Of a DNA stretch of 64,000 bases, positions 7,851 to 60,103 are shown in pieces. A program made the translations under genes and the position numbers. The DNA comes from a virus, in the IMG/VR virus record IMGVR_UViG_3300024239_000121, positions 7,923-71,922 of that record; one strand, written 5' to 3'. How positions within the stretch are numbered: position 1 is the stretch's first letter; the number at the start of each line of letters is the position of its first letter. The notes below the pieces were generated by a model. It was not told where the DNA came from and ran no database searches. It saw only the letters and a list, made by a program, of their open reading frames with translations.

Positions 7851-10800
7851 TGCCCAACTTTGACCTGGATACTTACTTTGCGAACAGGGAAGCTCGCACT
7901 CTCGGAGTAGCTACTCCCGAGGGCGTTACAGACTTGAATGCCAAACAGGCTCAAGTTGCTTCCGCGTCCGCAAAGAAAGTCCAGGTTCTTCAAGAACTGG
8001 TCGAACGTCGTGAAAACAATGAGCGGGATACCGTAGTTGGCTGGCTGGGTCTCGACCCGAACAGCACAGGAGGCAACGTAGTGAACACTGCGGTGTCCTC
8101 GCTCAGTGCCATCGAAGACATTGCAGGGACTGTAGCCCCTGAAGCTGTGCGTGAAGCCATCGACATGGATAGTCTGATCGCCACGCAACATGCCGGCACC
8201 AAGCCATCCAGTGTTCAACGTCGCCTGATTGGTGACGGTGCTGTCTCTGGCTTGAAGAGTGCGATCGCCGTACCGGAAATGGCTGTCGGTCTGGCTGACC
8301 TGGTGTCTTCCGGGCATGCAGGTAAAGCCCTGGAGGAAGCCGGTTTCCGTCCAGAGGAGGCCAAGCAGTTCCTCGATACGCTGAAGACCCACGAGCAGCA
8401 AGCGGCCAGTGGTTCCGTCGAAGATGCTCAAGGCTTCTGGGGCACTCTGGCTGAAATCGCCGAGAACCCCAGCTTCATTCCTCATGCCGTCACCGAATCG
8501 CTGTTCCCGATGCTAGCGGGAGGTGTAGTAGGCCGTGGTCTGCAGGCACTTGGCATGGGTGTGAAAGCCGCCTCCGCCATAGGTGAAGGTGCGGTCATGG
8601 CAGGCAGTGCTGCCGAAGGTATTCGTCAACAGACCGAAGACGGACTACTGACGCCGAAGCAGGCTGCAGCTGCCGGCCTTACCGGCGTCATGGGTGCAGG
8701 TGTTGCTCGCCTGGGCAATGCTGTTGGCGGGCGCACGGGCCTGCGTGATATCGACGAAGCCGTGACGGCAGGCACTCTAGGCACCAGCCAACGGAATGCC
8801 CTGGCTCGTGGTGCTGGCGGTGCTGTCATTGAAGGTGCCGAAGAGACCCTGCAATCCGCTGGCGAGCAGATGCTGCAGAACGTGGCATTGGACCGCGAGC
8901 TGACCGAGGGTGTTGGTAACGCTGCTGCAATGGGTCTGGTGACTGGTGCTGCCATGGGTAGTGTCATGACTGGTAGTGCTCGTGAAGCGAACGAAGAGGA
9001 AGTTGAGCAGGCCAGTGAGACCGGCAACGTGTCCTCGCTGCTACAACCAGGTGCCTATGCACCGGAGAAGGCAGCCAAGGCACTGGCCACGCACAGCCTG
9101 AAGAACGAAGACCCTCAGGTCCGTCAGGACAACCTGGCCAAGCTGGGTGAGATCCGTTCTGCCCTGGAAGACGAAGCCAAGGCTGAAGCCATGGTCGAGC
9201 GTATCCAGCAGCGCATGGAATCGGCTCCTCAAGAGCAGCAGCCTCAGCTGGAAGCCTTGCTGGCTCAGGCCACCGAGTCGCTGACTACCATTCGTGCTGC
9301 ACTGGGTCTGCAGGATGTACCGGCTGCCGAGCGTAAAGAAGCACTGGCCAAGCAGCTGGATCAGGTGAAGCAGGCAGAGGCCTCGATCACTCAGCTGATG
9401 GAACCGGAGAAGCAGGATCTGTCCTCGCAGATCGAGCTGGCCGATACCGTACTCGAGAACGTCACCCCTGAAGTCCAGCAGACTGCCCGTAAGGCAGCCG
9501 AGCGTGTGGTCTCTCTGGCCATGGAATCGCCAGAAGCCCTGGATGTGGAGGTGGCTAATCGCCTGGCCAGCAACATGGCCAACAGCCTCACCGAGCCTGA
9601 GCGTGTCGTGCTGCGTACCTTCGCCAAGGCCAAGGCACTGGCTCACCAGGTCAAAGGCCTGGAAGGCGTCAACAGCGATATCTTCAACGGCAATAAGAAG
9701 GAAGGGTACAAGGGCCTCAACGAGTACAGCAGCAACGTGCGTCGTGCTCTGGCCTACAAGACCCCCGATCTGGAAGCGGCTCAGCACGAGATCGATGGCC
9801 TGGCCAAGTTCGTGGAATCGCGCAAGGCCAAGCTGGCTGTGGCTCAGAAAGCCTTCGATGAAGTGGCTGGATCTGCCAACACCCAACAGTGGGTCCGCGA
9901 TCGATCAGGCACCTGGATGCCTGCTGATCGTCAGTACAGCTACGACGAGATGTACGCGATGGGTGGTATGACCATCCACGGTGGATCTGGGAACCTGGTA
10001 GCCAATATCGCTCAGGAAACTGAAGCCCTGGAAGCTGGCCTGCAATCGCTGCAGGCGCTGTACGACATGAAGTCTGCTGCTCCGGTACAAACAACCGTGA
10101 ATCAGCCGGAGGCTGCTGCCCCTCAGGCTATCGAGCCTGTTGAACAGAAGGCTCCAGTCGAGACACCGGAGCAGGAAGCCGGCATTGCCGAAGATGCCCC
10201 GGAAGCGGTGAAGTACCGCAAGACGAACAACCTCAAGCGTCTGTTCTCTCAGCAGCCAGGTAATCCGACAACCGGAACTCAGCGTCCGCTGGTGGCCACC
10301 GAGAACTTCCTGACCAAGCTCAGCCAGGGCGAAGTGAACACCCTGGATTACGTGCAGCAGGAAGACCTGAGCGAAGAGCAGCTGGGGCTGCCGAGTGCGT
10401 TCATCCGTATGGCCAAGGCCTGGATGCCAACCATCGAAGACAACTTCTTCAAGCGGACCACTCAGGCCAGTCACAAGACCGATGCACGGGATCACTACTA
10501 CAACGACTACACCCAGTACCTGCAGGATGAACAGGGGCAGGTGGACGAGAACGTGAAGACGGCCATTGCAGCTGCTGCGTTCGCGCATGTGGCTGACAAC
10601 GGCGGTCAGACGCTGAACGACAACACCACTATCAACAAGACCCTGGGCAAGGACAAGGATGCCTCGATCACCCCGGCAGCCAACCAGAAGCTACGCAGGA
10701 TCGGCACGCTGCGTGGTGCCCTGATCAACTCGCTGGGTCAGGCCGTTGTGCAGTCGCTGGGTTATCAGCTTAAGGACGATGCCCCGCAGAGCGAGAAGGC

Positions 10801-13800
10801 CAAGCTAGAAGTAGCCCTTGGTGCTCAGGCACTGGCTCTGCTGCTGGATCAAGGCATTGTCGAGCAGACCACCCTCACCAAGGGCGAGCTGGATGATCTC
10901 AAGGGTGTGGACTTCAATGGCCAGATCAAGGCCATGCGTGCAGTCGCCAAGACTCAGGCCGATCGGGATGCTATCACCAAGCTGATCGAGTCTCGCAAGA
11001 ACGAGGTGGCCTTCATTCGCTTCGTGACCAACAAGGATGGCTCCCTGACTCAGGAAGCTCAGGCGATTCGAGATGCCAGCAAGAACACAGGCGGTCTGTT
11101 CACCAAGCTGTTCGGTATCGAGACCGGTCCTCGTGAACCGAGCTTCAAGCCACTTAAGTACAACCAGAAAACGGCGAACAACTCCACCAAGCCGATCTCC
11201 GACAAGGAGCGTGCTGCGTTGGAGAAGGAAGCCAAGGCACCCTACATCCTGCAAAAAGACATGTGGGCCGTACTGGAGAAGATCGCCAACCCGGCGATGA
11301 TTCTGCAGATGGCAGGCGTGCAGGATGAGGCGTTGGAGACCTTGCACAAGACCAACCGTGACGGTGTGATCGCCAAGAACCAGGGCTTGCTGCGCGAATG
11401 GGAACGTCTGGTGGCGTTCGTGGGTGATCTCAGCCGTCAGAAGGCTGGCCAGGACACCAAGTTCTACCTGATGCCGAGTGCCTGGAAGAACGATCGTGTG
11501 GGCCTGGATTCTGCCATCAACCCGCAAACCAGCAAGATCCACCGTTTTGTTGTTGGCAAGCAGAGTGCTGAAACCGTAGTTCGCTGGACTGAAGACGACC
11601 AGACGAATCTGGATGTGTTCAAGCTGCGTGTGGCTGAAGGTCTGGGCGTGAAGACCGACAAGCAGGACAACAAGCGTTCGTTGGCTGCCTACGAAGCCGA
11701 GATGCAGAAGCCGGTGTACCAGGATGCAGTGGCTGCCCTGCGTAAGGCTCTGCTGGATCAGGACCTGACCTCGGGCGAGCAGCAGGCGATCGTAGAAGGC
11801 GTGAAGGCCGGACGTGCGAACTTCCATTCGCTGTCGTCGCTGGTAGCTCAGGCCACCTACGAGAACGCCCGTGAGGCTGGGCAGCAGAAGTTCACCACCA
11901 TGCTGCTGGCCGAAGTGGACGGCGTGACCAATGGCCCGATGCTGAGTCACCTGCTGTTCGGTGCCTTCGGTTCGCTGAAGGATGCGATGACTCGGCTTAA
12001 CAAGGGTGGGTTCTTCGAGATCGGCAACGCTTTCGAGCAATACAACCTGTGGCGCGCAGCACCCGGTCAGAGTGACCTGTACGAGTCGACCGCTATCGAC
12101 CTGAACAAGGTGGTGCAGAAGAAGTGGCAGAACAAGAAGCTGCAGCCCATGTACAGCGCGTTGTTCTACGTCACAGGAAAACTGGACGACAATGGCTCGC
12201 CTACCAGGGCAGGCCGAGAACTGATGAAGCCTCCGGTGACCAAGAGTGGTTACGGCGAAGGTCTGGGCAAGACCGTCGAAACCATGGCTGAGGATTTCAT
12301 TCAGCAGGTCTACGACCACATCCAGGAGATCTCGGCAGGCAAGTCCAAACTGGAGCTGCAACCGCTGCTGTCTTCTGTTCGTCTGCTGATCAGTAAGGCC
12401 GATGAGAAGGCGGCTGCAGAGTTGGACGTGGACATGCCGATCGAGAAGGCGATGGAGTTCACCTTCACTAACCAGCAGTTCAAGGCGTTGAAGGCCACCT
12501 ATCTGAACACGCTTGGTAGCGATATCACCGACACCATCAGTAAAGCCTTTGGCCGATTCACCCAGCGTCGTCAGGTGTTCAATCAGGCTGCCAACCTGGC
12601 GTTCGACCTGTACCAGCAGCTGTACCAGTCCAAGCGTCGTGCCCTGATCGAGCAGCTGATCGCCGAAGGCAAGATGGCCACGGATGCCAAGGGTGTTCCG
12701 CTGCATGACCTGACCAACAAGCAGGAAGCTGAGTTGCAGGCTTCGCTGACTGATGTGGCTCCAATCCTGCACACCGCATTCTCCAGTGCCGGCGATCAAC
12801 TGGAGGCAGGTATGCGTCTGGCCAAGCGAGACAAAGGCCTCAGTAATGAGGCCGCCTACCGCAACGAGGTGAAGTTCGGCAAGAAGGGCAAGAAGCCAAT
12901 GGCTGGTTTGCGCGCCTTCGGCTACAAGATCGGCGAAGTAGGACCAGGTGTGTCCGGTGCCGTGGGTTCGGTTCACTCAACTGATGCGGCGATCTCGATC
13001 AATGCCGGTGCCGAGGTGGATTCGATCAACGTCCACGATGCCCGTATATACGGACTGAAGGATGTACATGCGGGTGCCCGTAGCCTGAACAAGCAGACCT
13101 TCCTGCAGGCGCTGGAATACTCCCCGATGGACCAGATGCTGGCCACCCTGGAGCGTTCGATCAAAGGACTGGCGGATGCACTGGCTCAGGAAAACGATGC
13201 AACCCTGAAGGCAGGCGTGGCTTCGCTGCTGGCCGAGAAAATCGCTTCGCTGAGCGAAAACCAGCGCGAGACACTCAGTCAAAGTGGCAAAGGTCCTATC
13301 GAGTTCCAGCTGGATCAGCTCCGTGCTACCGCACTGGCTGCCGAATCCATGAAGCTGGAGATCCTGGCCAACCTGCAGGCGGTCGACCAGTACGCCTTCG
13401 AAGGTGGTGCCTACCGGGTCACCGAGCAGGATCGTGCAAAGGCCCAGCAAAAGCTGGAGGAGCGTAAGAATCGTCCTGCTGATGAAGCTGCTACTGAAGC
13501 AGCAAAGCGGATTGATGCGACGCTTAACCAGAAGACTGCGCAGGCAAAGCCGGCTCCAGTGGTACAGAGTGAACCTACTCTGGTCGATGATGCCGATCTG
13601 GGTATTCCTGAGCGTCAGGAAGATCCTGTTGTAACCACCAGTGCCTGGGGTGAGTTGGGCAAGTCGCCGATCGAGCATGACAGTGAGCTGGTTCAGTTCT
13701 TCAAGAGCAACCCTCAGCCTTCGCTCAAGGACGTACTGAAGGTCCTGCGTGCGCGTATCGAAGCGACCAGCACCGGACGGACTCAGGAGTTCAACCGCGA

Positions 13801-16800
13801 ACTGTGGAAAGCCCTGGCCAAGCACGTCAATCCGGCGATGAAGATCGTCTATGTCACGCCTGAGATGGCGATCCCGGAAGGTGTGGCCGAGAAGCAGGCA
13901 CAGTCTGCCCGTGGTCTCTACAGCTTCAGCGATTCGATGGACACGCTGTACATCAAGAGTGATGCGTTCCGTCGTTCGGGTGTGACGACCGAGCTGCTGA
14001 TGCACGAGCTGGTTCACTCGGTGGTGGCACGTACCATCGATCTGGCCGAGCAGGGTAAGCCTTTGCCGGATACGGCTGATCTGGTGGCTGAACTGGGTGT
14101 GCTGCTGGAGCGTAGCCGTCAGCATGTGGCCGATAAGCCTGAACTGGCTCAGCGGTACAGCAATGCCCTGGCCAACGTGCAGGAGTTTGTGGCGTGGGGC
14201 ATGACCAACCAGGGTTTCCAGCGTGATGTGCTGAACCAGTTCACCCTGCAGACCAAGACCTCGCGCAACGTGCTGGTCAAGGCCATGGAAGCTCTGACCA
14301 ACGTCCTGCGTGACATTCTGTTCCGTGGTTCGGACAAGTCGGCACAGAAGATCCAGGTCACTGGCTTGAAGACGCTGCTGGCCAACGTCTCCGGTCTGAT
14401 GGCGACTGCTGAGCAGGCGCGTGAAACCGTGGGTACTCAACGCACTCTGGCCATGGAAGATCCGGTTCTGGATATGGACGTGGCTGATCTGTTCGATGGC
14501 CTGCGTAACCCCGAGCAGCCACTGGATGTTGGCTTCGAGAGCCACCTGCGTGAGCTGCTGGATAATGTGGTACGTCCGCTGCATGGTCCGTTTGGTGCTG
14601 TGCGTCTGGAAGCCCTGGACGATCAGGCGATCGGTGCCCGTGAGCGTTTCCTCAAGGCCCTGGCGACTGGCAAGGCGCCTTTCGCTGCCAAGCTCAGCGA
14701 GGTGGTGAAGCTGTCCGATCAGGAAGCGTTCCTGGCCGAGAGCATTGAAGTCGCCCTGCGTACTGCCCTGGAGTCGAAGGATCGTTCGTCCTCGCTGGTC
14801 TACCGCGAGCTGAAGGGTCTGTACAACGAGGTCAAGGCCTCGCTGCCGGTATCGGCATTCTTCGATGGCGACTGGACCCAGGCCAACGATGAACAGAAGG
14901 CAGAGGCCCAATCCCTACGTGAGTTCTTCCTGGAGATCCCGGACGGGGAAGGGCAGTCCGACTACCTGAGCCGCTTCGCTGCTCTGGGTCTGGCCTACCG
15001 TCCGCTGTGGAAGCTGCTGGATCGATCCACTCAGCAAGACACTCGTGTCCTGCGTGATCTGACCTGGATGCAGCGTCTGCAGGCTCTGGTCGAGCGTGCC
15101 ATGGCCTATCTGGCCGGCAAGTGGACGCACACCTATGCCGGTCAGCAGGCCAACGACAAGCTCAAGACCCTGGTCGGTGAGCTGGTGGATATCGAAGCCA
15201 AGTACCGGGAGAAGGCTGCACGTCCGAACAACCAGTGGATCGAGATGGCCGAGAACGCTCTGGCCGGTGTCCAGGGCAAGGCCAAGGACATGATCGACCA
15301 GGTGGCCAAGTCGGACATGGTGCGCAACTCGAAGATCAGCGGTGTACGTCTGATGGGCCGGGTGGCCAGCCTGGCTGCTGATGACCGTCTGGAAGCCGTG
15401 ATCGATGCAGGTAACCAGCTGCGTGACCGTCTGTTCAAGGGTCGTCAGGGTCTGATAGCCGGCACATTCAACGAGATGAAAGGCCCGAACGAGATCATGC
15501 TGGCCCTGCTCAACTTCGCCAAGCGCAACGAGCAGGAACGAAAGCACCTGATCAACTGGACCCGTGATACAGCCCTGGGGAGCTTTGCCAACAAAGGTAA
15601 GCACCTGACTGCCAAGGATAAGGACGCCTTGGCTCTGCTGCTGCGTGCTGATCTGGCTTCGCTGCTGGATTACGGCTACTCGCTGGAGGAGATACAAAGC
15701 CTGCTAAGTCCCAATGGCAGCCTGCAGCAGCGGATTGGTGATCTGAGAAAGCAGCTAATGTCCTCGACTCATGCAGCAATGTACCTGCGTCGCGCCGAGG
15801 CATTAGGTGCCTACATGGTTACAGGAAAGGCTCGGATCAAAGGCTTGATGAAAAATGCGGACAACATCGCTCGCATGTTGGGCACCAAACATGCACATAG
15901 CATCCCGGATGCTGAGCTGGAACGAGTACGTCCCCTTATCGATCAACTGGCTTCTCTGTACGCATTGGAATACGCCAACCAATCCGACAAGGACCGGATT
16001 GCCAATGTGCTGGCGACCGAGCTGCAGCGTACCGATGGTGGTAACGGGGTGACTTTCGTGCTGAAGATGCACCGTGCCATGCAGCAGGAAGCCAAGGAAA
16101 AGCTGTTCGAGAATAGTGAGGCCGTGTTCACCAAGGGCTACACACCGGAGATCCACAACCCGCACATCGAGGTACTGGCTGCCACCGAGGAAGAGGGCGC
16201 AGCATTGGAACGCCAAGGCTTCCAGCGTGTAGCAGGTAATCCGTTGAATCAGGATATCGATGATTTAGACAAGCGAGCCAAATACCTCTATGTCCTCAAG
16301 GGCCGTGGTATGCAGCAGCGTCTGACCGGTGCCCTGTCCTACACAGGTGAGCGCGCCAAGGGTAGTCGCAAGCATAGCGGGATAGTCAACACGATCACTG
16401 GCAGTATCAACACTCATAATCAACAGGTGACTCAGCGGATTGCCCGTGCCGCCTCGATTCGAGAAGAGCGGGCAATTCAACAGAGGATGGGGCTTGGAGG
16501 AAGCAACAACTTAATTCCAATCTTAAATGCTGCTGGAGATATCGTTGGGCACCGGTATGAGATGAGCAACAAGGTACGGGATTCCCTGCTGGAGCGAACC
16601 AATGCGTTCGACACTCTGCTGGGTACGCTGCACGGCAACGTGTTCGATAAGCAGGCGTCCCGTGAGCAGAACGCCCAGGTGGTCCAGGCCTTGTTCGATC
16701 AGTGGAATGCCGACAAGGACAGTCGTCGTGACGCCTACATCATGGTGGGTCCGGACAGCAGCGATGACGAAGGTGTAGAGACCTGGCGTCTACTACCGCA

Positions 16801-17962
16801 CCACACCCAGGAAGTGATTCGTCAGGTGTGGAAGGGCAACAACATGATGGTGCGCAACGATCAGATCGACCTGATCGCTGGTTACCGCAAGTACAGCCTG
16901 GCCGACATGTTCGACAAGGATGAGCGTACGACCAAGGGCTGGAAGAACCTGCTCAAGCATCAGGAAGATGAACGCAACATGCTGGAACAGATGTTCGTCT
17001 GGTTCACCGAAGACTTCTTACGGCTGGATAAGAAAGCTGCATTGCGTGTTCGCCAGGCAGAGGATTTCTGGCAGGCGGTAGTACAGGAGGTAAAGGACAT
17101 TATAGTGGTGCGTACTGGCCTGGTTCTGTTATGGAACATGATCAGCAACATGACTGTACTTCTGTGGCAGGGTGTTCCGATCAAGGATCTGATGCGGAAT
17201 CACTGGGTAGCATGGCGTGGGGCAGTCAACTATCGGAAGGATTCCGAAGAGCTGTTCCGTCTGGAAGCAGCACTGTCGACTGGCACGTCTGGGGATGCGA
17301 AGGCTACACAGCAGCGTATTCGCCAATTGCAGGATTCTCTGGCACGTAACCCGGCCAAGGAACTGATTGATGCGGGGATGTTGCCGACCATCGTCGAAGA
17401 CGTGGCCTTGGAGGAAGACCCTTACTCCTATCGCAGCAAGCTGAAGGAGAAGGTGGATCAGTACACCAGCAAGCTCAACCCCACGGTCAAGCAAGCGGCT
17501 GCGTTCGTTTACATGGCTCCGGGTACTCCGTTGCACACGGCGATGAGCCAGGCCACTCAGTACTCGGACTTTGTGGCTCGCTACACGCTGTATCAGCACC
17601 TGATCAACAACAAGAAGGCGCCGAAATCCAAGCAGGAAGCCTTGAAGCGGATCTCCGACAGCTTCGTCAACTACGACGTGCCGTCGCACCGCCACATGCA
17701 GTACCTGAACGACATGGGCTTGCTCATGTTCACCAAGTACTACCTGCGGATTCAGAAGGTGATCATGCAGATGTTCCGGGAGCATCCGGCTCGGGCGATC
17801 ATGATGGTGACCCTGGATAGCTACCTGCAGGGCATGCAGACCATCGTCGACTCCTCGATGTGGGGCCGACTGGGTAATCCGCTGGAGTGGGGTGCCTTGC
17901 AGTACCCTGGCACGCTGGATGAACTGGCCACCATCAAGGGAATGATGAGCCTGATCAAGTGA
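7850..17962 (+). CDS. Virion-encapsidated RNA polymerase (N4 gp50-like)
   Basis: 3370 aa with no Cys seen. Motif A EVDGVTNG, motif B RELMKPPVTKSGYG, motif C NVHDA, and a downstream HELVH zincin-like motif. Confidence 0.97.
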   Translation: MPNFDLDTYFANREARTLGVATPEGVTDLNAKQAQVASASAKKVQVLQELVERRENNERDTVVGWLGLDPNSTGGNVVNTAVSSLSAIEDIAGTVAPEAVREAIDMDSLIATQHAGTKPSSVQRRLIGDGAVSGLKSAIAVPEMAVGLADLVSSGHAGKALEEAGFRPEEAKQFLDTLKTHEQQAASGSVEDAQGFWGTLAEIAENPSFIPHAVTESLFPMLAGGVVGRGLQALGMGVKAASAIGEGAVMAGSAAEGIRQQTEDGLLTPKQAAAAGLTGVMGAGVARLGNAVGGRTGLRDIDEAVTAGTLGTSQRNALARGAGGAVIEGAEETLQSAGEQMLQNVALDRELTEGVGNAAAMGLVTGAAMGSVMTGSAREANEEEVEQASETGNVSSLLQPGAYAPEKAAKALATHSLKNEDPQVRQDNLAKLGEIRSALEDEAKAEAMVERIQQRMESAPQEQQPQLEALLAQATESLTTIRAALGLQDVPAAERKEALAKQLDQVKQAEASITQLMEPEKQDLSSQIELADTVLENVTPEVQQTARKAAERVVSLAMESPEALDVEVANRLASNMANSLTEPERVVLRTFAKAKALAHQVKGLEGVNSDIFNGNKKEGYKGLNEYSSNVRRALAYKTPDLEAAQHEIDGLAKFVESRKAKLAVAQKAFDEVAGSANTQQWVRDRSGTWMPADRQYSYDEMYAMGGMTIHGGSGNLVANIAQETEALEAGLQSLQALYDMKSAAPVQTTVNQPEAAAPQAIEPVEQKAPVETPEQEAGIAEDAPEAVKYRKTNNLKRLFSQQPGNPTTGTQRPLVATENFLTKLSQGEVNTLDYVQQEDLSEEQLGLPSAFIRMAKAWMPTIEDNFFKRTTQASHKTDARDHYYNDYTQYLQDEQGQVDENVKTAIAAAAFAHVADNGGQTLNDNTTINKTLGKDKDASITPAANQKLRRIGTLRGALINSLGQAVVQSLGYQLKDDAPQSEKAKLEVALGAQALALLLDQGIVEQTTLTKGELDDLKGVDFNGQIKAMRAVAKTQADRDAITKLIESRKNEVAFIRFVTNKDGSLTQEAQAIRDASKNTGGLFTKLFGIETGPREPSFKPLKYNQKTANNSTKPISDKERAALEKEAKAPYILQKDMWAVLEKIANPAMILQMAGVQDEALETLHKTNRDGVIAKNQGLLREWERLVAFVGDLSRQKAGQDTKFYLMPSAWKNDRVGLDSAINPQTSKIHRFVVGKQSAETVVRWTEDDQTNLDVFKLRVAEGLGVKTDKQDNKRSLAAYEAEMQKPVYQDAVAALRKALLDQDLTSGEQQAIVEGVKAGRANFHSLSSLVAQATYENAREAGQQKFTTMLLAEVDGVTNGPMLSHLLFGAFGSLKDAMTRLNKGGFFEIGNAFEQYNLWRAAPGQSDLYESTAIDLNKVVQKKWQNKKLQPMYSALFYVTGKLDDNGSPTRAGRELMKPPVTKSGYGEGLGKTVETMAEDFIQQVYDHIQEISAGKSKLELQPLLSSVRLLISKADEKAAAELDVDMPIEKAMEFTFTNQQFKALKATYLNTLGSDITDTISKAFGRFTQRRQVFNQAANLAFDLYQQLYQSKRRALIEQLIAEGKMATDAKGVPLHDLTNKQEAELQASLTDVAPILHTAFSSAGDQLEAGMRLAKRDKGLSNEAAYRNEVKFGKKGKKPMAGLRAFGYKIGEVGPGVSGAVGSVHSTDAAISINAGAEVDSINVHDARIYGLKDVHAGARSLNKQTFLQALEYSPMDQMLATLERSIKGLADALAQENDATLKAGVASLLAEKIASLSENQRETLSQSGKGPIEFQLDQLRATALAAESMKLEILANLQAVDQYAFEGGAYRVTEQDRAKAQQKLEERKNRPADEAATEAAKRIDATLNQKTAQAKPAPVVQSEPTLVDDADLGIPERQEDPVVTTSAWGELGKSPIEHDSELVQFFKSNPQPSLKDVLKVLRARIEATSTGRTQEFNRELWKALAKHVNPAMKIVYVTPEMAIPEGVAEKQAQSARGLYSFSDSMDTLYIKSDAFRRSGVTTELLMHELVHSVVARTIDLAEQGKPLPDTADLVAELGVLLERSRQHVADKPELAQRYSNALANVQEFVAWGMTNQGFQRDVLNQFTLQTKTSRNVLVKAMEALTNVLRDILFRGSDKSAQKIQVTGLKTLLANVSGLMATAEQARETVGTQRTLAMEDPVLDMDVADLFDGLRNPEQPLDVGFESHLRELLDNVVRPLHGPFGAVRLEALDDQAIGARERFLKALATGKAPFAAKLSEVVKLSDQEAFLAESIEVALRTALESKDRSSSLVYRELKGLYNEVKASLPVSAFFDGDWTQANDEQKAEAQSLREFFLEIPDGEGQSDYLSRFAALGLAYRPLWKLLDRSTQQDTRVLRDLTWMQRLQALVERAMAYLAGKWTHTYAGQQANDKLKTLVGELVDIEAKYREKAARPNNQWIEMAENALAGVQGKAKDMIDQVAKSDMVRNSKISGVRLMGRVASLAADDRLEAVIDAGNQLRDRLFKGRQGLIAGTFNEMKGPNEIMLALLNFAKRNEQERKHLINWTRDTALGSFANKGKHLTAKDKDALALLLRADLASLLDYGYSLEEIQSLLSPNGSLQQRIGDLRKQLMSSTHAAMYLRRAEALGAYMVTGKARIKGLMKNADNIARMLGTKHAHSIPDAELERVRPLIDQLASLYALEYANQSDKDRIANVLATELQRTDGGNGVTFVLKMHRAMQQEAKEKLFENSEAVFTKGYTPEIHNPHIEVLAATEEEGAALERQGFQRVAGNPLNQDIDDLDKRAKYLYVLKGRGMQQRLTGALSYTGERAKGSRKHSGIVNTITGSINTHNQQVTQRIARAASIREERAIQQRMGLGGSNNLIPILNAAGDIVGHRYEMSNKVRDSLLERTNAFDTLLGTLHGNVFDKQASREQNAQVVQALFDQWNADKDSRRDAYIMVGPDSSDDEGVETWRLLPHHTQEVIRQVWKGNNMMVRNDQIDLIAGYRKYSLADMFDKDERTTKGWKNLLKHQEDERNMLEQMFVWFTEDFLRLDKKAALRVRQAEDFWQAVVQEVKDIIVVRTGLVLLWNMISNMTVLLWQGVPIKDLMRNHWVAWRGAVNYRKDSEELFRLEAALSTGTSGDAKATQQRIRQLQDSLARNPAKELIDAGMLPTIVEDVALEEDPYSYRSKLKEKVDQYTSKLNPTVKQAAAFVYMAPGTPLHTAMSQATQYSDFVARYTLYQHLINNKKAPKSKQEALKRISDSFVNYDVPSHRHMQYLNDMGLLMFTKYYLRIQKVIMQMFREHPARAIMMVTLDSYLQGMQTIVDSSMWGRLGNPLEWGALQYPGTLDELATIKGMMSLIK

Positions 17963-41761: not shown

Positions 41762-41797
41762 CTAGAACTGCATGGTGATGTTGGCGGTAGAAATCAA
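41762..41797 (-). other. attP core resembling the 5' end of a host YbiT-type ABC-F gene
   Basis: TTG ATT TCT ACC GCC AAC ATC ACC ATG CAG TTC TAG = MISTANITMQF*; 29 bp from the int stop; flanked by arm repeats. Confidence 0.8.
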
Positions 41798-41825
41798 GGT
41801 GCTCTATCTCGTGGGTTTCAGAGGG

Positions 41826-43013
41826 TTAGGTTTCGCTTCGGGCCAATTTCGGGGCAATTTTCAATTTCCCCATCTCGTTCCAGTCACCCTCACCATCGAT
41901 CCAGCGTGCGTATCGAGAGAGGAGAATTTGTAACGAATGGCCGAGCTGTTTGGCGATGAAGGCAGGAGTCATTCCAGCCATCAGGCACATGGTTGCGTAC
42001 GTGTGGCGCGCATTGTACGGAGGCCGGTAACGAATACCCAGCGCCTTCAGGGTTGGACGCCACTGATGGTGCAGGTCACTCGTCTGTTGGATGAACTGAT
42101 GCCCCTTGCTGGGCGGGAAGCAGTGAGGGAATTCCTTGATCCTTCCCGATCCCTTGGCTCGCCGTTCGGCATACGCCTTGGCGAACTCCAGGGCATGCAC
42201 AGCCCGGTCATTGAGCAGCACGTACCGATCCTTCTTGGTCTTGGTTCGGTCTTCCACTTCCTTGAGGGCAACTGTCCGACGAACCAGCACACGACGCTTC
42301 TCCAGCTCGACGGAATCCCACTGCAGTGCAGCGATCTCACCCAGGCGCATGCCTGTGTAGAAGGCGAACTCGAAGAAGGCAGCGTAGATACCACTTGGCC
42401 AGTGCTCGGTGGCATACAGCCTGTCGATGATCAGATCAGCCTCTTCCTGAGAGAACGGATCGATGGTCTTTTCCTTGGGACGGGGAATGTCCAGATCGAC
42501 CATGGGGTTCTCGGCGATGAGCTTGTCGCTCACAGCCGATTCCAGGATGGTGCTCAGCTTGTTCATCGCATTGGCTTTGACGCCATCGGTGGTCCAGGGA
42601 ATGCGTACCACCAGCTCACGCATGAATGCCGTGGTCAGGGCCGTGATCGGCGTGGTGGCCAGGTACTTCATCCACCAGTGGTTGAGCACTGACCGGTAGT
42701 TGACCCGTGTGCCCTCAGCCAGCTCACGGCTATCGAGCCAGACCTGAGCGTACTGACCGAAGGTGTAGCTGACGGCAGCCATGGAATTGGTGGAGTTGGG
42801 GAACAGCTCGGCATAGGCCTCGGGGGTGAGGGTGCCGTGCTTGGCCATCTGGACTACTTTATCTCGTAGACGGGATGCAGCCGTGATCCCCGCTTGCGTC
42901 GTGGGGTAGTCAAGGGTCTCGGAGCAGCGTTTTCCGTTCCAACTGAATCGGATACGGAGCGCACCGTAATGGAGTTCAACTCCTGTGGGCAGTGCCACTG
43001 GCTTTCTTGCCAT
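41826..43013 (-). CDS. int: Tyrosine integrase with N-terminal arm-binding (DUF3596-like) domain
   Basis: TGMRLGEI, YNARHTYAT, IAKQLGH and YARW catalytic motifs; N-terminal LRIRFSWNGKRCSETL. Confidence 0.95.
   Translation of the reverse strand: MARKPVALPTGVELHYGALRIRFSWNGKRCSETLDYPTTQAGITAASRLRDKVVQMAKHGTLTPEAYAELFPNSTNSMAAVSYTFGQYAQVWLDSRELAEGTRVNYRSVLNHWWMKYLATTPITALTTAFMRELVVRIPWTTDGVKANAMNKLSTILESAVSDKLIAENPMVDLDIPRPKEKTIDPFSQEEADLIIDRLYATEHWPSGIYAAFFEFAFYTGMRLGEIAALQWDSVELEKRRVLVRRTVALKEVEDRTKTKKDRYVLLNDRAVHALEFAKAYAERRAKGSGRIKEFPHCFPPSKGHQFIQQTSDLHHQWRPTLKALGIRYRPPYNARHTYATMCLMAGMTPAFIAKQLGHSLQILLSRYARWIDGEGDWNEMGKLKIAPKLARSET
41837..41859 (+). repeat. Integrase arm-type sites, right (inside the int 3' end)
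   Basis: TTCGGGCCAATT and TTCGGGGCAATT. Confidence 0.75.
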
Positions 43014-51785: not shown

Positions 51786-51992
51786 TTAGTGGTACTTAAC
51801 GTAGTTACCAACCGGAGAAGGGCCTGAGCACTCCTCCCAGTTGTTCTCCTTGCACCAATCGAATAACTCGACGCAGCCTGGCATAACAGGTGAAGCAAGC
51901 ACGTAGCCAGTTTCATCTTTTGATGAGTACAAGAACGTGCCTACCGTACCGTCAGGCGCTGTGCATTGGATTGCCAGATAGGCTTTCTTCAT
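51786..51992 (-). CDS. Hypothetical protein
   Basis: ATGA overlap with the DNA polymerase stop. Confidence 0.65.
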   Translation of the reverse strand: MKKAYLAIQCTAPDGTVGTFLYSSKDETGYVLASPVMPGCVELFDWCKENNWEECSGPSPVGNYVKYH

Positions 51993-54649
51993 GCAGCCTC
52001 CTTGTGGGATTCCAACTCCCCCAGCGCCTTTTCACATACCTCGCGGATCTGCTCAGGCGTGGCGTCGTTGGGTAGGGTGATTGGGTGTGCCCAGTCCGGG
52101 TAGAACAGGTCCAGTGCCGCACCGAGTTTCACGGTGTCGTGCTGGATCTCCGGCAGCTCCTGCCACTGCATCGACTTGATCAGTTCCCGGTTGGCCCAGG
52201 TGACCACATCGATCCGATCGCGGATGAGCAGGTAGATGGCGTCATGGATCAACGCCACCGGCAGCACGTCATAACGGAACGGGGAGTTCCAGACCTTCTG
52301 CATGAACTCGACTGCTGCCCGGTTGTTCAGCAAGCCGTAGGACTGACCCAGGGCGTTACCTGCGGTACGGCCTTCTGCTGCTGCCTCGTAGGGCATCTTC
52401 GAGCCTTTCCAGATCACCTGCTTGAGCAACGGGGTGCGTACCCGCAGTCCGAATGCCACCTCGACGTAACCGTCTTTGGCAGCCTGCTCCAGCCGTTTGG
52501 CCACGTACTCATCCGACACCTTGTAGAGGTCGTGGTAGTTGGCCTCGATCACCTTGGCCTTGTCCTCCGGCCAGCCCAGGTTGCTCATCATCCCGTGGTA
52601 GGTGCCACCGTAGGTGAGCAGGAAGGTCGGAGCCTTGGAGTCCTGGCGCAGATCCGGTGCCAGCTTCTTGATGGAGTTCACCGACGCTGGATCATCCAGT
52701 GCGATGCGGATGCCACGAGCCAGGAGGTCTTCCTGGAAGTAGTAGGCCGCCCGTAGACAGTGACCGTCGAAGCCCTTGATGTAGACGTTGAGCTTGTTCG
52801 GGTCCTTGGTCGTCAGGGCACTGATGTAGTCCTCCAGCGAGTTGAAGTCAGCCCCCGCGAAGATCCAGCCCTTGGGTGCCGAGAAGCAGCCCTTGATCAG
52901 CTTGCCGAACGTCGACCCCGATGGGATCTGTTGCATGTTCGGTTTGCTGGAGCTGAGGCGTCCGGAGACCGTACCACCCAGGTTGTAGCCGCCGTGCAGC
53001 CAGATCTTGCCGTCACCCTTGTCCAGTGCTTTTTCAAACGCCGGGATGAATGCCGACAGGATCTTGGTGACCCCGATGTACTCGACCATGGCCTGCAGGA
53101 AGGCTTTGTCCTCTGGTTTGCTGGCATGGTTGACCAGCTTCTCCAGGGTGTCACCGCCGGTAGCCGGTTGCTTGGTGTCTGTCAGGTCTAGGACCGGAAG
53201 GCCCATCTCCTGATACAGCAGTCGTTGCAGCTGCGGTCCTGAGTTGGGGTTGAACACCGACTTGGGGAAGAAGGTGCGGTCCTTGGGGAAGATCTTGTCG
53301 GGGTTCTTCGCCTTGTTACGGCGATCCTCGAAGTCCTTCTCCCAGGCCTCGTGGGTCATCTTTGCTTCCAGTGGAGCGATGAGCGGATGGCCCATGATCA
53401 CCTTGAGGTAACTGGCTTCCAGTCGCTCCAGTTCGGCTTTCGCTTCCTGTACCCGCGACCGCTCCATCGGCATGCCGGTCAATTCCATCTGGATGATAAC
53501 CTTCAGGCTCGGCAGCATCAGTGTGTGATACAGCTCCTCCTGCCGGTCGGCCACCATGATGGGGTAGTACTTGGCCTTGACGTAGTTGGTCGACAGACAG
53601 TCCACCAGGTTGTACTGCAGCAGCTTGGCTGGCTCGATGGCCAGGACGTTGTTGATCTCTTCCACCGCCCAGTTGCCGGCGAACTCATGAGCCAGTGCCT
53701 TCAGGCCCAGCACGTTACCGGCTGTACTGTTGGTGGCCAGGTAGGCAATGACCTTGGTGTCGTCGAACGATCGGGTGAGGATATCCAGCCCCAGCAGCAG
53801 GCCTTTCTGATCCAGCGGGTCTTTCATCCACAGTTCATAGATGATTGATCGCAGGTCATAAGAGGCGTTGTGCCAGGTCAACTTACCATTGTAGCTGGTA
53901 AGGAACTTGAGCAGCAGTTGCTTGACTGGCTTGTTGTCCCTACGTTCACCAAAGGGAGCTGACGTAGCGCCCGCGATCGGCTTGTAGTCGACCAGGAACG
54001 AGACACCGTTGTGCTGGTCCCAGGCGAAGCCCATCGAGGCAATACCGGCTTCGTTGAAAGCCAGTCCGAAGGCCTCGATATCTGCCGATAGCTCAGGGTA
54101 CTGATGGAGCGAGTCGAGAGCGGCTGCAATGTCGTCATAGGTGGATGGGTACTGGGCCGAGTGGATGATGTTGTGGCCCAGCGGTTGGTAGCTGCCTTGC
54201 ACGGCATCGGCGAGGGTCTGCAACGACATGTCCAGCTTCTGGTACAACTCGGGGTTGTAGACCAGCTGCTGATAGTTCAGGCCCAACACCACCTGCATGT
54301 GCTCGAATCCCTGGATTTTGCAGGGCAGCACATAGCCGTAGTGAGGTTCGGCCTTGGACATTTTGGTCAGTGTCTTGAAGTACGCTGCATCGGTGCAGAA
54401 CAGGTACTTCACACCCAGGCTGTTCAGCGCGACTAGCAGCTTGTCGAGGTAGTCCTTGATAAAGGCTACCGGGACCTTGCCGGCCTCGTTGTATTCCAGG
54501 GTGAAGCCGATCATGCGGTTGGGGGCTACACCGAGCTTTTGCAACGGCTCGATGTAGTGGTTACGCATAGCCATCTCGTTGAAGGCTGCCGCCTTTGTCA
54601 GCACGGCAACCTCATAACGCTCGGCCTGCTCGAAGATCAGGTGGCGCAT
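51989..54649 (-). CDS. Family A DNA polymerase (N4 gp39-like)
   Basis: Exo ADIEAF; TVSGRLSSSKPNMQQ; motif A DFNSLE, motif B RQDSKAPTFLLTYG, motif C IHDA. Confidence 0.96.
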   Translation of the reverse strand: MRHLIFEQAERYEVAVLTKAAAFNEMAMRNHYIEPLQKLGVAPNRMIGFTLEYNEAGKVPVAFIKDYLDKLLVALNSLGVKYLFCTDAAYFKTLTKMSKAEPHYGYVLPCKIQGFEHMQVVLGLNYQQLVYNPELYQKLDMSLQTLADAVQGSYQPLGHNIIHSAQYPSTYDDIAAALDSLHQYPELSADIEAFGLAFNEAGIASMGFAWDQHNGVSFLVDYKPIAGATSAPFGERRDNKPVKQLLLKFLTSYNGKLTWHNASYDLRSIIYELWMKDPLDQKGLLLGLDILTRSFDDTKVIAYLATNSTAGNVLGLKALAHEFAGNWAVEEINNVLAIEPAKLLQYNLVDCLSTNYVKAKYYPIMVADRQEELYHTLMLPSLKVIIQMELTGMPMERSRVQEAKAELERLEASYLKVIMGHPLIAPLEAKMTHEAWEKDFEDRRNKAKNPDKIFPKDRTFFPKSVFNPNSGPQLQRLLYQEMGLPVLDLTDTKQPATGGDTLEKLVNHASKPEDKAFLQAMVEYIGVTKILSAFIPAFEKALDKGDGKIWLHGGYNLGGTVSGRLSSSKPNMQQIPSGSTFGKLIKGCFSAPKGWIFAGADFNSLEDYISALTTKDPNKLNVYIKGFDGHCLRAAYYFQEDLLARGIRIALDDPASVNSIKKLAPDLRQDSKAPTFLLTYGGTYHGMMSNLGWPEDKAKVIEANYHDLYKVSDEYVAKRLEQAAKDGYVEVAFGLRVRTPLLKQVIWKGSKMPYEAAAEGRTAGNALGQSYGLLNNRAAVEFMQKVWNSPFRYDVLPVALIHDAIYLLIRDRIDVVTWANRELIKSMQWQELPEIQHDTVKLGAALDLFYPDWAHPITLPNDATPEQIREVCEKALGELESHKEAA

Positions 54650-56757: not shown

Positions 56758-57864
56758 TCAGATGTTGTAGTGGATTACTTTCCCGTAGGGTGCGGTGAAC
56801 TTCTTGTTATTGTGGATGACCCACAATACCGGGCATTTAGGTGCAGGCATTACATGTCTGAACTCGCCGTCACTGAATAACAAGAGTGCAACTGGTTTGT
56901 TGTCTCTTGCCCACTGGATTACTTCTGAAACATTCGTACCACCACGTCCGTGGAACGTGACCTGTTGCAAGTCAGATACACTCTTGAGTACATCCTTTTT
57001 GTGGATACGTGTATCAAACTGCAGCAAGGTTATTTGCGATGGCTTCAACTTCTTCATGATTCCATTTACTTCACTGATGAAGCGATGGAAGTCTGAGTCG
57101 CTGACCGAGCCAGAAGTATCAACAGCAATGGCTATTTCGCCGAGGGTAATGCCATAGAGAGTTGGGAGAATGTGTTCAGGCATGAAACGGCGATTGGGCC
57201 GTTTCCAGGTGTAGTCCGTCTTGGCGAACTGATTGAAGAACTTCCGCAGTAACTTGTCCCACGGAAGAATCGGGTTGAGGTATTCATCCAGGAAGATCTG
57301 GATATCACCCGGAATGGTGCCTGGCTTGTCACCGCTCATGGCTGACTGCGTAGCGGCACGCATGATGATATCGGTGATGTGCTGCTCGGCCTGTTTCTGC
57401 TGCTCAGGGGATTGAGGGCCTGGCGGCAGATCCTGCATGCGAGGCTGACCTGGATTGTCAGGCAGCAGGTCGTACACCTGAAGGGTGCTCATGCCCTTGA
57501 ACTGAGGATCTTTGAGAACCCAATCAGGCATCTTGAAGCCACGCTCCAGCAGCATCAGGTTGATGACATGATCGCCAGCGATGTTCCACTTGTCTGGGCA
57601 ACGATCACCACGACGCACGGTGTGCATTAAGGCAGGGTGCATGCACTCATGCACCAGCACGAAGATCCGCTCTTCTTCGGAGAGCGAGAGGAAGAATTGG
57701 GGGTTGATGCCGATGGTTGTGTCGTTCACATACGCAGTCGGCTGAGTATCGTCAAAGACAATACGGAACGAAAAACAGAGGGTGGTAAAGAAAGCACTAT
57801 CAGGCTTACTCATAAGGCCGATCTTGGCTTTGTCGAGAGCCTTATTGGCATCTTGCAATGACAT
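56758..57864 (-). CDS. vWA / metallopeptidase-like protein (N4 gp25-like)
   Basis: HECMH and AVDTSGS MIDAS motifs; GRGGT. Confidence 0.9.
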   Translation of the reverse strand: MSLQDANKALDKAKIGLMSKPDSAFFTTLCFSFRIVFDDTQPTAYVNDTTIGINPQFFLSLSEEERIFVLVHECMHPALMHTVRRGDRCPDKWNIAGDHVINLMLLERGFKMPDWVLKDPQFKGMSTLQVYDLLPDNPGQPRMQDLPPGPQSPEQQKQAEQHITDIIMRAATQSAMSGDKPGTIPGDIQIFLDEYLNPILPWDKLLRKFFNQFAKTDYTWKRPNRRFMPEHILPTLYGITLGEIAIAVDTSGSVSDSDFHRFISEVNGIMKKLKPSQITLLQFDTRIHKKDVLKSVSDLQQVTFHGRGGTNVSEVIQWARDNKPVALLLFSDGEFRHVMPAPKCPVLWVIHNNKKFTAPYGKVIHYNI

Positions 57865-57967
57865 GGTGAACTTCCTTTGAAGTTGATAGTTACAACTAAC
57901 CGGACAATAAAAGTCCAACTTGCAGGCGTAACTATCCTGCAAATTGAACTTCTAAAGTGTGCTGGGG

Positions 57968-58090
57968 TTACTTACGATTCCGACGAATCTCGGAACACTT
58001 CCTGTGACTGATAGGGGAACTTCCCCCTCGGTGCCTTCCGCAAATATCGCAAGTGCTTCGCAATGTATCTTCCAGTGATTTGCTTCGCAA
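57968..58090 (-). CDS. Possible small Cys/His Zn-binding peptide; start uncertain
   Basis: CDICGRHRGG..SHRKCSEIRR in the 3' part of the track ORF; the obvious ATG (58106) is out of frame. Confidence 0.35.
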   Translation of the reverse strand: MRSKSLEDTLRSTCDICGRHRGGSSPISHRKCSEIRRNRK

Positions 58091-58115
58091 AGTACTGGGT
58101 TTCCATTGCGCCTTA

Positions 58116-58292
58116 CTACTCACTGACAACTTCCGGTTTTTTCTTGTTCTTGATGTTATCCCGTTGGATCTCAATTTCTTTCGGGGCATCAATACCAATA
58201 CGGGTTTGACCGTTCTGGGTGCCAAGAATACGGACAACAATGTTGTCACCAATGTGGACTGCTTCACCTGCCTTGCGGGTAATTACGAGCAT
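58116..58292 (-). CDS. csrA: CsrA/RsmA-family RNA-binding translational regulator, not in ORF track
   Basis: MLVITRKAGEAVHIGDNIVVRILGTQNGQTRIGIDAPKEIEIQRDNIKNKKKPEVVSE*; AAGGAAG RBS. Confidence 0.92.
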   Translation of the reverse strand: MLVITRKAGEAVHIGDNIVVRILGTQNGQTRIGIDAPKEIEIQRDNIKNKKKPEVVSE

Positions 58293-58381
58293 TACGACTT
58301 CCTTACTGCTACTACTTGGTTGGGTTGAGTGTTTTGCACTTCGGCATCGCTATTCCATCTGATTATTCAGCGGAACAGTCG

Positions 58382-58876
58382 TTATGTGTTAAGAACCAAC
58401 TGTGTTGTATTACCAGCGATCAGCTGTCTGGCTCGGTAAATCTTTCCGTACTCGACCTGGTTGTCCCAGGACGGCGGATTGACAGCCTCGTTGTGCCGCT
58501 TCAGAAGATCCTTCACGGCATCCAGCGAGTTGTGTTCTTCAATGACCTTTCCCAGGACCGAGGGGTGGATGTAGTAATCACTTCCACTGACGGTCTTGAG
58601 TGTGAGGTCACCGGTTTCAGTGAAACGACAGTACTGCACCCCCTCTTCATATTCGGAGCCTTCGTCCCAGTCCATGTTGTAGGGGATGCCGGCTGACTGC
58701 AGCTCCTTTATGCAGCACAGCTCTCCGTAGTTCACTTCTTCGAAACCCATGTAGTGAACTTCGTCGTTAAGGATGTTCTCCTCGTTGGGTTCCCCGTCAT
58801 GCTTGATGGCGATCTCCTTGGCCTGCTCGAACAACTCGGCAGGCACATAGAGGTACACGTAAGTACGGTCGCCCAT
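58382..58876 (-). CDS. Hypothetical protein
   Basis: AAGGAG RBS before MGDRTY; acidic. Confidence 0.7.
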   Translation of the reverse strand: MGDRTYVYLYVPAELFEQAKEIAIKHDGEPNEENILNDEVHYMGFEEVNYGELCCIKELQSAGIPYNMDWDEGSEYEEGVQYCRFTETGDLTLKTVSGSDYYIHPSVLGKVIEEHNSLDAVKDLLKRHNEAVNPPSWDNQVEYGKIYRARQLIAGNTTQLVLNT

Positions 58877-58877
58877 G

Positions 58878-59090
58878 TCAGCTCCTTTTCTCGCGGATCG
58901 GAACCAGGGCACGAGTCAGATCCATACTGGATCGCTTGAGTGCTCCAGACTCCTTGGGGTTGTTGTGGCTGTAGCCCCGTGAAATCAGCTGCTTGGCTTG
59001 AAGTTCTCGTTCGGCGTGCAACCAGGTTTCAGCCCGTGCAAGGAAGCGCTTGGCTTCCTCGACGGCTTCCTCGACACGCTGGATGTTCAT
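58878..59090 (-). CDS. Hypothetical protein
   Basis: TGATG coupling; KESGALKRSSMDLTRAL motif. Confidence 0.7.
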   Translation of the reverse strand: MNIQRVEEAVEEAKRFLARAETWLHAERELQAKQLISRGYSHNNPKESGALKRSSMDLTRALVPIREKRS

Positions 59091-60103
59091 CAGAACAACT
59101 CCTTCGCGTTCTTGGTGATCCACGCCTGAACGGACTTGTGGTTCATCAGCTCAGGGCTGCGACGCACCATCTCGCGCAGGGTGACGACCTGGAACTCGAT
59201 CGGCAGACGCAGCACGAAGTCCATCAACGGACCTGTGTTTTCGTTGTTGGCGTTGTGGGCGATCGAACCGGTCAGGGCGAACAGGATGCTGGGTTCCTGA
59301 GGCACCGGCAGGGTGGTGGCCTGCTCCATCATCTGGTTCAGGGTAGGCAGCCTGGAGTAGATCTCGGTGAAGGTACGGAACTCGCGTGCCACGCCTTCGG
59401 AGATCGTGCCAGCCAGCAGGGGAATGTCCTCGATACCGATCTCTTTGTCCTTGACCAGACGGTTGACGAACTCCCAGGTACGGGGGCTGGCGTAGGTACA
59501 GTCGGTGTGATCCGGACTGAAGGTGTACAACATGCCTGGCTTGAACTTGATGAAGCTGGTGATGCGGTGGTCGATACCATTCTTCATGGCCCAGCCTTCA
59601 CACCAGTCGATGTGATCCACCGTGACTTCCATGTGAACCAAGCGAGATTCCAGAGCCGTGCTCATCTCTTCGACGATGGCTCCGTCTGTCTCCAGGTTGC
59701 CTGCACAGACGATGGCAACCTTCTTGTGCAGACGGTGAGTGCCGACCATGCGATCCAGCACGAGCTTGTAACTTGCCGCTTGAACGGCACGCGGCGCACT
59801 GGTGAACTCATCGAGAAATAAAAGCCATCCGTTGTAGCCTTTTGGAACCTCGTCACCCTCTACGGGAAAGGTTTCCATGGGGAAGTACCTGCCTCGGCCA
59901 CCTTCGGTGCTTGGAAATCCAAGAATGTCTGTCGGGTCGCACTGAGCCAATCGCAGGTCGATGACTTTGAGTCCGTATTCTTTGGCGATCTGGTGAACGA
60001 TGGAGGACTTGCCCACGGCAGGGCTGCCCTTGACGATCGGGACCAGGCCGACCTTGATGCACTGCACGATCATGTCGTGTGCTTGGGATAGTTTTACCTT
60101 CAT
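59090..60103 (-). CDS. AAA+ ATPase (N4 gp24-like, MoxR-like)
   Basis: GSPAVGKS, DLRLAQCDPTD, LFLDEF, CAGN and SPRTW motifs. Confidence 0.93.
   Translation of the reverse strand: MKVKLSQAHDMIVQCIKVGLVPIVKGSPAVGKSSIVHQIAKEYGLKVIDLRLAQCDPTDILGFPSTEGGRGRYFPMETFPVEGDEVPKGYNGWLLFLDEFTSAPRAVQAASYKLVLDRMVGTHRLHKKVAIVCAGNLETDGAIVEEMSTALESRLVHMEVTVDHIDWCEGWAMKNGIDHRITSFIKFKPGMLYTFSPDHTDCTYASPRTWEFVNRLVKDKEIGIEDIPLLAGTISEGVAREFRTFTEIYSRLPTLNQMMEQATTLPVPQEPSILFALTGSIAHNANNENTGPLMDFVLRLPIEFQVVTLREMVRRSPELMNHKSVQAWITKNAKELF

Follow-up and report, generated by a model that had tools for sequence, protein, structure and literature searches.

The 64,000-nucleotide stretch analysed here (the window; positions 7,923 to 71,922 of IMG/VR virus record IMGVR_UViG_3300024239_000121) contains, on its minus strand, a short gene of the csrA family embedded between conserved phage genes and several candidate RNA elements (Table 1). 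A preliminary description made from the letters alone had pointed to a 58-aa reading frame resembling CsrA, and this frame lies exactly where it had been placed, on the minus strand and with an ATG start. The gene is part of a co-directional block of middle (replication) genes and does not lie beside the integrase gene or the immunity region. The local block is headed by a gene for a MoxR-like ATPase, which is 45-50% identical to the ATPases of cultured Schitoviridae, and the next conserved gene downstream of csrA in the relatives is always the one encoding the DUF2201/vWFA protein.

Table 1 Features of the csrA locus and of the integration region in the window
Feature	Position	Strand	Basis or remark
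MoxR-like AAA ATPase, N4 gp24-type, heading the local gene block	59090..60103	minus	phrog_1297 at 1e-124
Upstream neighbour of csrA, 164 aa as called in relatives	58382..58912	minus	no Pfam match
Conserved hairpin TTCCGCTGA-ATAA-TCAGATGGAA	58353..58375	minus	fold and conservation; in the 89-nt gap from the stop of the upstream gene to csrA
Shine-Dalgarno-like AAGGAAGT	58297..58304	minus	read from sequence; ends 4 nt before the ATG
csrA-family gene, 58 aa	58116..58292 (stop codon included)	minus	ATG start; intact ORF
Structured non-coding spacer, 251 nt, between csrA and the DUF2201 gene	57865..58115	minus	fold z-score -5.9
Terminator-like element: long hairpin (-27 kcal/mol, z -6.6), then UUUUAUUGU (U-run)	57904..57954	minus	fold
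DUF2201_N + DUF2201/vWFA protein, N4 gp25-type, 368 aa from the ATG at 57864	56758..57864	minus	Pfam, 128 and 106 bits
Tyrosine integrase	41826..43013	minus	PF00589, 70 bits; Arm-DNA-bind_2, 46 bits
attP side: phage copy of the leader and initial 33 nt of a host ABC-F (ybiT-type) gene	41765..41825	minus	identity with the L068 junction, then break

A near-minimal CsrA-family protein

The Pfam CsrA profile PF02599 matches the 58-aa protein with 72 bits (E=3.9e-20; cut-off 27) over positions 1-50 of its 53, and the same match is recovered by a whole-genome search of the carrier. On dozens of public contigs the gene has been called with a precomputed Pfam CsrA match. Among the PHROGs families, phrog_9500 ('CsrA-like regulator') matches the protein at 5.9e-18 over its whole length. 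In a phmmer search against the PDB, residues 1-50 are colinear with RsmE (2jpp, E=2.7e-12) and equally with E. coli CsrA (1y00), Yersinia RsmA (2bti) and P. aeruginosa RsmA (1vpz), with E values of ~1e-11 to 1e-12, so the alignment to CsrA that had been drawn by eye along the protein was correct. The scores against the NCBIfam CsrA equivalogs NF002469 (64.8 versus 73 bits) and TIGR00202 (63.7 versus 70.1 bits) stay under the cut-offs, and we therefore regard the phage protein as a member of the family and not as an orthologue of the housekeeping CsrA, from which it may differ in specificity.

Across 36 aligned homologues, six residues never vary: M1, L2, R6, A36, P37 and R44. The positions that we take to be the RNA-binding set from mutagenesis of E. 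coli CsrA and the RsmE-RNA structure are, in E. coli numbering, L2, L4 and R6 in β1 and V40, V42, R44 and I47 in β5 and the start of the helix. The phage protein is identical at L2, R6, R44 and I47 and has Ile, a conservative replacement, at positions 4, 40 and 42. His43 is replaced by Gln and Glu45-Glu46 by Asp-Asn, and the segment QRDNI aligns with HREEI, with the Arg44 equivalent retained as had been proposed. The near-invariant Glu10 is Gln in the alleles of two divergent relatives (L076 and L077).

The AlphaFold2 model of the monomer has a mean pLDDT of 82, with values of ~90 over residues 1-40. The best 15 Foldseek matches to this model in the PDB are all CsrA, RsmA or RsmE chains (TM 0.55-0.80, rmsd 0.7-3.4 Å), and most of them fall within the narrower range of TM 0.76-0.80 and rmsd 0.9-1.3 Å. 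The C-terminal helix is reduced in the model to one turn (residues 45-48), beyond which come Lys-rich residues and then a disordered tail (residues 54-58). The preliminary description had the helix replaced by KNKKK; the shortening and the lysine-rich stretch are confirmed, the full replacement is not. A tail of the form K/R-x-EVVSE is conserved in all csrA alleles. By homology, the protein would form a homodimer in which β1 of one chain pairs with β5 of the other. A two-copy complex prediction scored 0.36, the mark being 0.42, and β1 and β5 are not assigned as strands in the monomer model, which is expected of a swapped dimer, though it is not proof of one.

At the nucleotide level, the last codons of csrA (58116-58135, minus strand), which read GGAAGTTGTCAGTGA and encode EVVSE, are nearly invariant even between alleles whose neighbouring codons have strongly diverged. 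Because of this invariance amid diverged codons, the segment may be subject to a constraint beyond coding, or the C-terminal tail may be functionally important.

A temperate N4-like carrier that integrates in Stutzerimonas

The window is taken from a 74,540-bp virus record that is rated complete. Its gene content is N4-like (Schitoviridae-type) and includes a T7-like RNA polymerase subunit (phrog_2051, 7e-149), the gp24-type ATPase, the gp25-type DUF2201/vWFA protein, a Dda-like helicase and a family-A DNA polymerase. A 3370-aa ORF (window 7850-17962, plus strand) encodes a putative virion RNA polymerase; it is matched weakly by vRNAP_dom_2 (22.9 bits versus a cut-off of 27), which makes it very divergent from gp50 of coliphage N4. 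The best matches of the carrier ATPase are to Schitoviridae. On its gene content, we assign the carrier to the N4-like podoviruses of Schitoviridae type.

The window encodes a tyrosine integrase, for which a look-up by exact sequence returned no record. A contig of an NCBI assembly (L068, 16438-20076) carries a close relative whose integrase gene directly precedes a bacterial ABC-F ATPase gene and bacA, and the ABC-F protein encoded there is identical to 'MULTISPECIES: ABC-F family ATPase [Stutzerimonas]'. Compared with this junction, the window shows no difference from the integrase gene across the leader to nucleotide 33 of the ABC-F gene, where the identity breaks off. Taken together, the integrase, the junction, the identity on the attP side and the identical Stutzerimonas protein indicate that the phage is temperate, that its integration site is the 5' end of an ABC-F gene and that its host is Stutzerimonas (P. 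stutzeri group). A strictly lytic phage, with the contigs of 284-335 kb explained as concatemers, was rejected since the integrase is real and the relative is integrated beside bacterial ABC-F and BacA genes.

The Pseudomonas setting assumed at the outset is therefore approximately right: a close relative sits in a Stutzerimonas chromosome, and the group has a working RsmA/RsmZ/RsmY network. The early mention of lysogeny is likewise justified by the integrase and the attP. The P. stutzeri group has both RsmA and RsmN (PMC7366521), and RsmA, RsmZ and RsmY control Psl biofilm and c-di-GMP there (PMC8249394). We found no published description of an N4-like prophage of Stutzerimonas.

Maintenance and origin of csrA in the phage lineage

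Proteins that are identical to the one in the window or 95-98% identical to it occur on dozens of contigs from many samples, and further alleles occur at 78-83% identity; beyond this phage lineage, everything else in a collection of 5.8 billion proteins is at most 64% identical. Within the main allele group (11 alleles), nine segregating sites are synonymous and two change an amino acid (pN/pS ~0.07), and dN/dS between the two csrA allele groups is 0.31. These ratios are those of a gene under purifying selection.

The place of csrA is constant in every related contig seen: it follows the MoxR-type ATPase gene and two small genes and directly precedes the DUF2201/vWFA gene. To guard against circularity, relatives were also fetched through the DUF2201 protein, independently of csrA, and all five retrieved in this manner carry CsrA in the same position, two of them at only ~83% nucleotide identity. 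The CsrA HMM finds no match anywhere in the three nearest cultured Schitoviridae (Pantoea G19, Vibrio PJN101 and Acinetobacter XC38), and the ATPase gene of G19 lies next to the vWFA gene. A megablast search of the csrA locus against cultured phages matched nothing. With tblastn, 93 phage records match at identities of at most 53%; the matches listed come from temperate Pseudomonas phages (39-66 kb), Vibrio phages (~50 kb), Xanthomonas jumbo phages and some others, and include none of the N4-like size class (70-80 kb). Species-representative bacterial genomes are without a close copy, the best match (57%) coming from a Pseudomonadales metagenome-assembled genome. Since the three nearest cultured relatives are without CsrA, the phage matches reach no more than 53% and the best bacterial match is at 57%, csrA is an old insertion, specific to this lineage, that separates two N4 core genes and for which these searches point to no donor.

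Signals around the gene and public transcript data

The Shine-Dalgarno-like AAGGAAGT in front of csrA is invariant in 20 close relatives and is replaced by AGGTAGT in the divergent L076 and L077. A promoter scan found no sigma-70-like promoter on the coding strand in 57700-59200, that is, within ~900 nt upstream of csrA.

The spacer behind csrA is better conserved than the synonymous sites of its neighbours: its mean pairwise identity is 0.962, versus 0.867 and 0.698 at the third codon positions of the flanking genes. A 44-aa ORF within it (57972-58106) was considered as a small protein and dismissed, because an in-frame TAG breaks it in many relatives, and for the same reason we take the spacer to be non-coding. 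The terminator-like hairpin and its U-run, with which the spacer ends, were missed by a simple terminator scan, its loop being 9 nt long and the limit of the scan 8. In two relatives (L010 and L015), an inserted gene of 219 aa starts right after this hairpin, which marks the hairpin as a module boundary.

One position in the spacer is occupied by three different hairpin sequences, UUUGC-GAA-GCAAA in the window, AGACUU...AAGUCU in L054 and CUUC-GCAA-GAAG in L076 and L077. That different self-complementary sequences occur at one position in different relatives argues that the hairpin as such is being maintained there. The spacer could serve as an RNA stabiliser, as a processed small RNA or as a DNA-level element.

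None of the public runs that contain the csrA locus is reliably RNA. Four runs labelled as RNA were inspected over 20 kb; three have even, DNA-like coverage and one is too sparse to interpret. The sparse run, labelled 'METAGENOMIC RNA-Seq', yields one 477-nt contig (window 57956-58423) that spans the upstream gap, csrA and the spacer and ends at the foot of the terminator hairpin, at a low depth that may make this a chance result.

Proposed function and alternative readings

CsrA and RsmA proteins are master switches of biofilm formation, motility, secondary metabolism and, in some bacteria, CRISPR-Cas. The 58-codon gene described here is a stripped-down relative of CsrA/RsmA in a temperate N4-like Stutzerimonas phage, and the claim of a phage-encoded homologue is borne out by the strong HMM match together with the fold, the conservation of residues, purifying selection and synteny. 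On this evidence, the protein is very probably a functional minimal member of the family, with the molecular function of a dimeric, GGA-binding translational regulator. Our confidence in any particular biological role is much lower.

We infer the dimerisation, GGA binding, targets, expression timing and benefit to the phage as follows. The protein would consist of the five-strand RNA-binding core and a stub of the usual C-terminal helix, and its dimer, by homology, would bind GGA-containing sites near ribosome-binding sites and thereby change the translation or stability of the target mRNAs. In the most likely scenario, it would be produced together with the middle genes, either in lytic growth or upon induction, would enlarge the host pool of RsmA and RsmN or compete with it, and would bias the translation of host mRNAs, phage mRNAs or both in favour of the phage. 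The preliminary description had suggested that a phage copy could reprogramme host translation, withstand sequestration by sRNAs or time the phage genes.

Alternatively, csrA, the spacer and the terminator may make up a stand-alone cassette, expressed from the prophage, that shifts Gac/Rsm traits of the lysogen (Psl biofilm, c-di-GMP, motility and possibly CRISPR-Cas), rather than acting mainly in lytic growth. Such lysogenic conversion would suit a temperate carrier whose csrA has its own terminator-like hairpin behind it, at a recombination or module boundary in relatives, and a host group in which RsmA controls biofilm (P. stutzeri; PMC8249394). It would also fit the repression of CRISPR-Cas by RsmA in Serratia, on account of which phage RsmA has been proposed as an anti-defence tool (PMC8450108). 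However, a cassette of this kind is hard to reconcile with a coding strand that offers no sigma-70-like promoter within ~900 nt upstream, with the location of csrA in the co-directional replication block, away from the integrase and immunity region, and with public runs that give no RNA support from lysogens. We consider lysogenic conversion as the main role unlikely.

The composition of the spacer raises the further prospect of a regulator encoded together with its cognate RNA, the spacer being a cis-encoded platform, either an autoregulatory 3' UTR or a sponge of the CsrB/RsmZ kind, acting as a buffer for the phage protein or titrating host RsmA. The spacer of the window contains nine GGA (P ~0.003) and five GGAAG, a number that none of 2000 shuffles reaches; these motifs are enriched in the close relatives as well, in a spacer that is highly structured and conserved above the synonymous sites of its neighbours, and one of them can form a CAC-AGGAA-GUG hairpin. 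GGAAG is not the usual ribosome-binding site of this phage, and a reading of the copies as decayed ribosome-binding sites was rejected because GGAAG stands upstream of only 4 of 82 genes. The TTGCGAAGCA repeats were also considered as a genome-wide operator or promoter word and rejected, since the word occurs in the spacer only. Against a cognate RNA, the GGA triplets of the spacer are not preferentially unpaired (0.40 versus 0.38 for all triplets), and several of them are halves of GGAA/TTCC stems. L076 and L077 keep both CsrA and the spacer, yet their GGA count falls to four, the background level, and their GGAAG count to one, and they are without the AGGAA hairpin and the GGA of the csrA ribosome-binding site. 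Rfam returned no match of the spacer to any family, the Csr/Rsm sponge families included; the 20 close sequences display no covariation, being too similar to show any; and five more distant csrA loci have no GGA-rich flank.

A conserved, dedicated sponge or platform for CsrA was rejected on these grounds (the pairing of the GGA, the Rfam result and the loss of most motifs in L076 and L077), and the loss of most GGA motifs from divergent relatives that keep csrA leads us to reject the idea of a cognate CsrA-binding RNA largely as well; we regard it as very unlikely. In its most developed form, csrA, the spacer and the terminator would be one mobile module in which the spacer RNA is a functional partner of CsrA, for instance as a small RNA released by processing or as a 3' UTR with an autoregulatory effect, with GGAAG recently enriched in this clade, a proposal to which we give equally little chance. 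If it were true, the module would be a phage-borne pair of protein and RNA like CsrA/CsrB, letting a temperate N4-like phage override the Gac/Rsm switch of its host.

Lastly, the truncated protein might form mixed dimers with host RsmA or RsmN, or occupy RsmZ or RsmY, and so disable or release the host regulator instead of repressing targets, and the conserved dimer-forming β core, the one-turn helix followed by the conserved K/R-x-EVVSE tail and an identity of ~45-54% to RsmA/RsmE that is compatible with heterodimers would agree with this, but the RNA-contacting residues are all kept and under purifying selection, whereas a pure poison subunit would need no such conservation; we regard interference as highly improbable.

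Relation to known systems

A phage-borne regulator of this kind is not new, and the novelty implied by the preliminary description was overstated: phage CsrA genes had already been surveyed and annotated. Sobrero & Valverde (2020) surveyed phage CsrA/RsmA proteins in 30 phages, including the RsmM type of P. aeruginosa phages (PMC7366521), and Campa et al. (2021), from searches of GenBank and IMG/VR, suggested that phage CsrA may act against CRISPR or in manipulating the host (PMC8450108). The present gene is thus a new example and not a new kind. Like the catalogued proteins (PMC7366521, PMC8450108, phrog_9500), it is a small CsrA-domain protein of a tailed phage, in a host group already equipped with a Csr/Rsm system, and the same role, the manipulation of host post-transcriptional control and possibly of defence, can be proposed for it; unlike the records listed, it resides in an N4-like carrier, and it is at most 53% identical to the 93 matching records.

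The only phage CsrA with a functional test that we found in the literature is PTXU04_00028 (gp28) of the lytic coliphage PTXU04. [quoted passage not shown] This homologue, from a podovirus-type phage, lends support to a function in productive infection. Its identity to the protein described here is only 43% over residues 2-45, and the phage type and host are different. The best phage matches in tblastn (44-53%) are RsmM/Bci proteins ('bacteriophage control infection') of F116, phi297, AUS531phi and YMC11/07/P54, which likewise have a CsrA domain and come from temperate phages of the Pseudomonas lineage. By contrast with our N4-like carrier, theirs are sipho- or podoviruses of 39-66 kb, and the matches cover residues 1-50 only, whereas the present protein stops at residue 58, its end formed by a Lys-rich stub and the EVVSE tail. 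With at most 53% identity over residues 1-50 and no C-terminal extension past residue 58, it falls outside the RsmM/Bci subfamily.

The chromosomal RsmA, RsmE and CsrA proteins (1vpz, 2jpp, 1y00 and 2bti) share with it the fold (TM ~0.8, rmsd ~1 Å) and the same β1 and β5 residues, Arg44 included. They differ in sequence (43-54% identity) and in the helix, which has one turn in the phage protein, and no recognisable sponge RNA accompanies the phage gene: the spacer has no Rfam match, and its GGA are neither preferentially exposed nor conserved, which sets it apart from dedicated sponge RNAs of the CsrB, RsmY or RsmZ type. As for the carrier, temperate N4-like proviruses are known from the genome mining of Zheng et al. 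(2023), in which Moraxella is the commonest host and CsrA is not mentioned (PMC10654107). The present phage fits this class, with its integrases and integrated copies, and differs in its Stutzerimonas host and in its site, the 5' end of an ABC-F gene.

What distinguishes the case is the temperate N4-like Stutzerimonas carrier, the near-minimal length of the protein and its conserved EVVSE tail. A csrA copy in a phage is a plausible tool for host takeover or lysogenic conversion, a point made by two published surveys, and a single knockdown study has started to put it to the test. The carrier is a clear case of an N4-like phage with csrA that is temperate, a way of life recognised in this group only recently, and its host has an Rsm network that has been characterised experimentally; a near-minimal protein of 58 aa could help to define what the CsrA family needs in order to function. 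Its acquisition, as a defined, lineage-specific insertion between two N4 core genes, suits model work on phage CsrA and opens no new question.

Mosaicism of the middle region

Genes for HNH, AAA_2 and DUF8224 proteins come and go between the RNA polymerase and ATPase genes in the relatives, so that the middle region is highly mosaic. The family-A DNA polymerase is encoded by one 886-aa ORF at window 51989-54649; in several relatives (L008, L009, L010, L012 and L055) the gene is in pieces (for example, of 570-692 aa), with an HNH/NUMOD4 homing-endonuclease gene adjoining them or lying between them.
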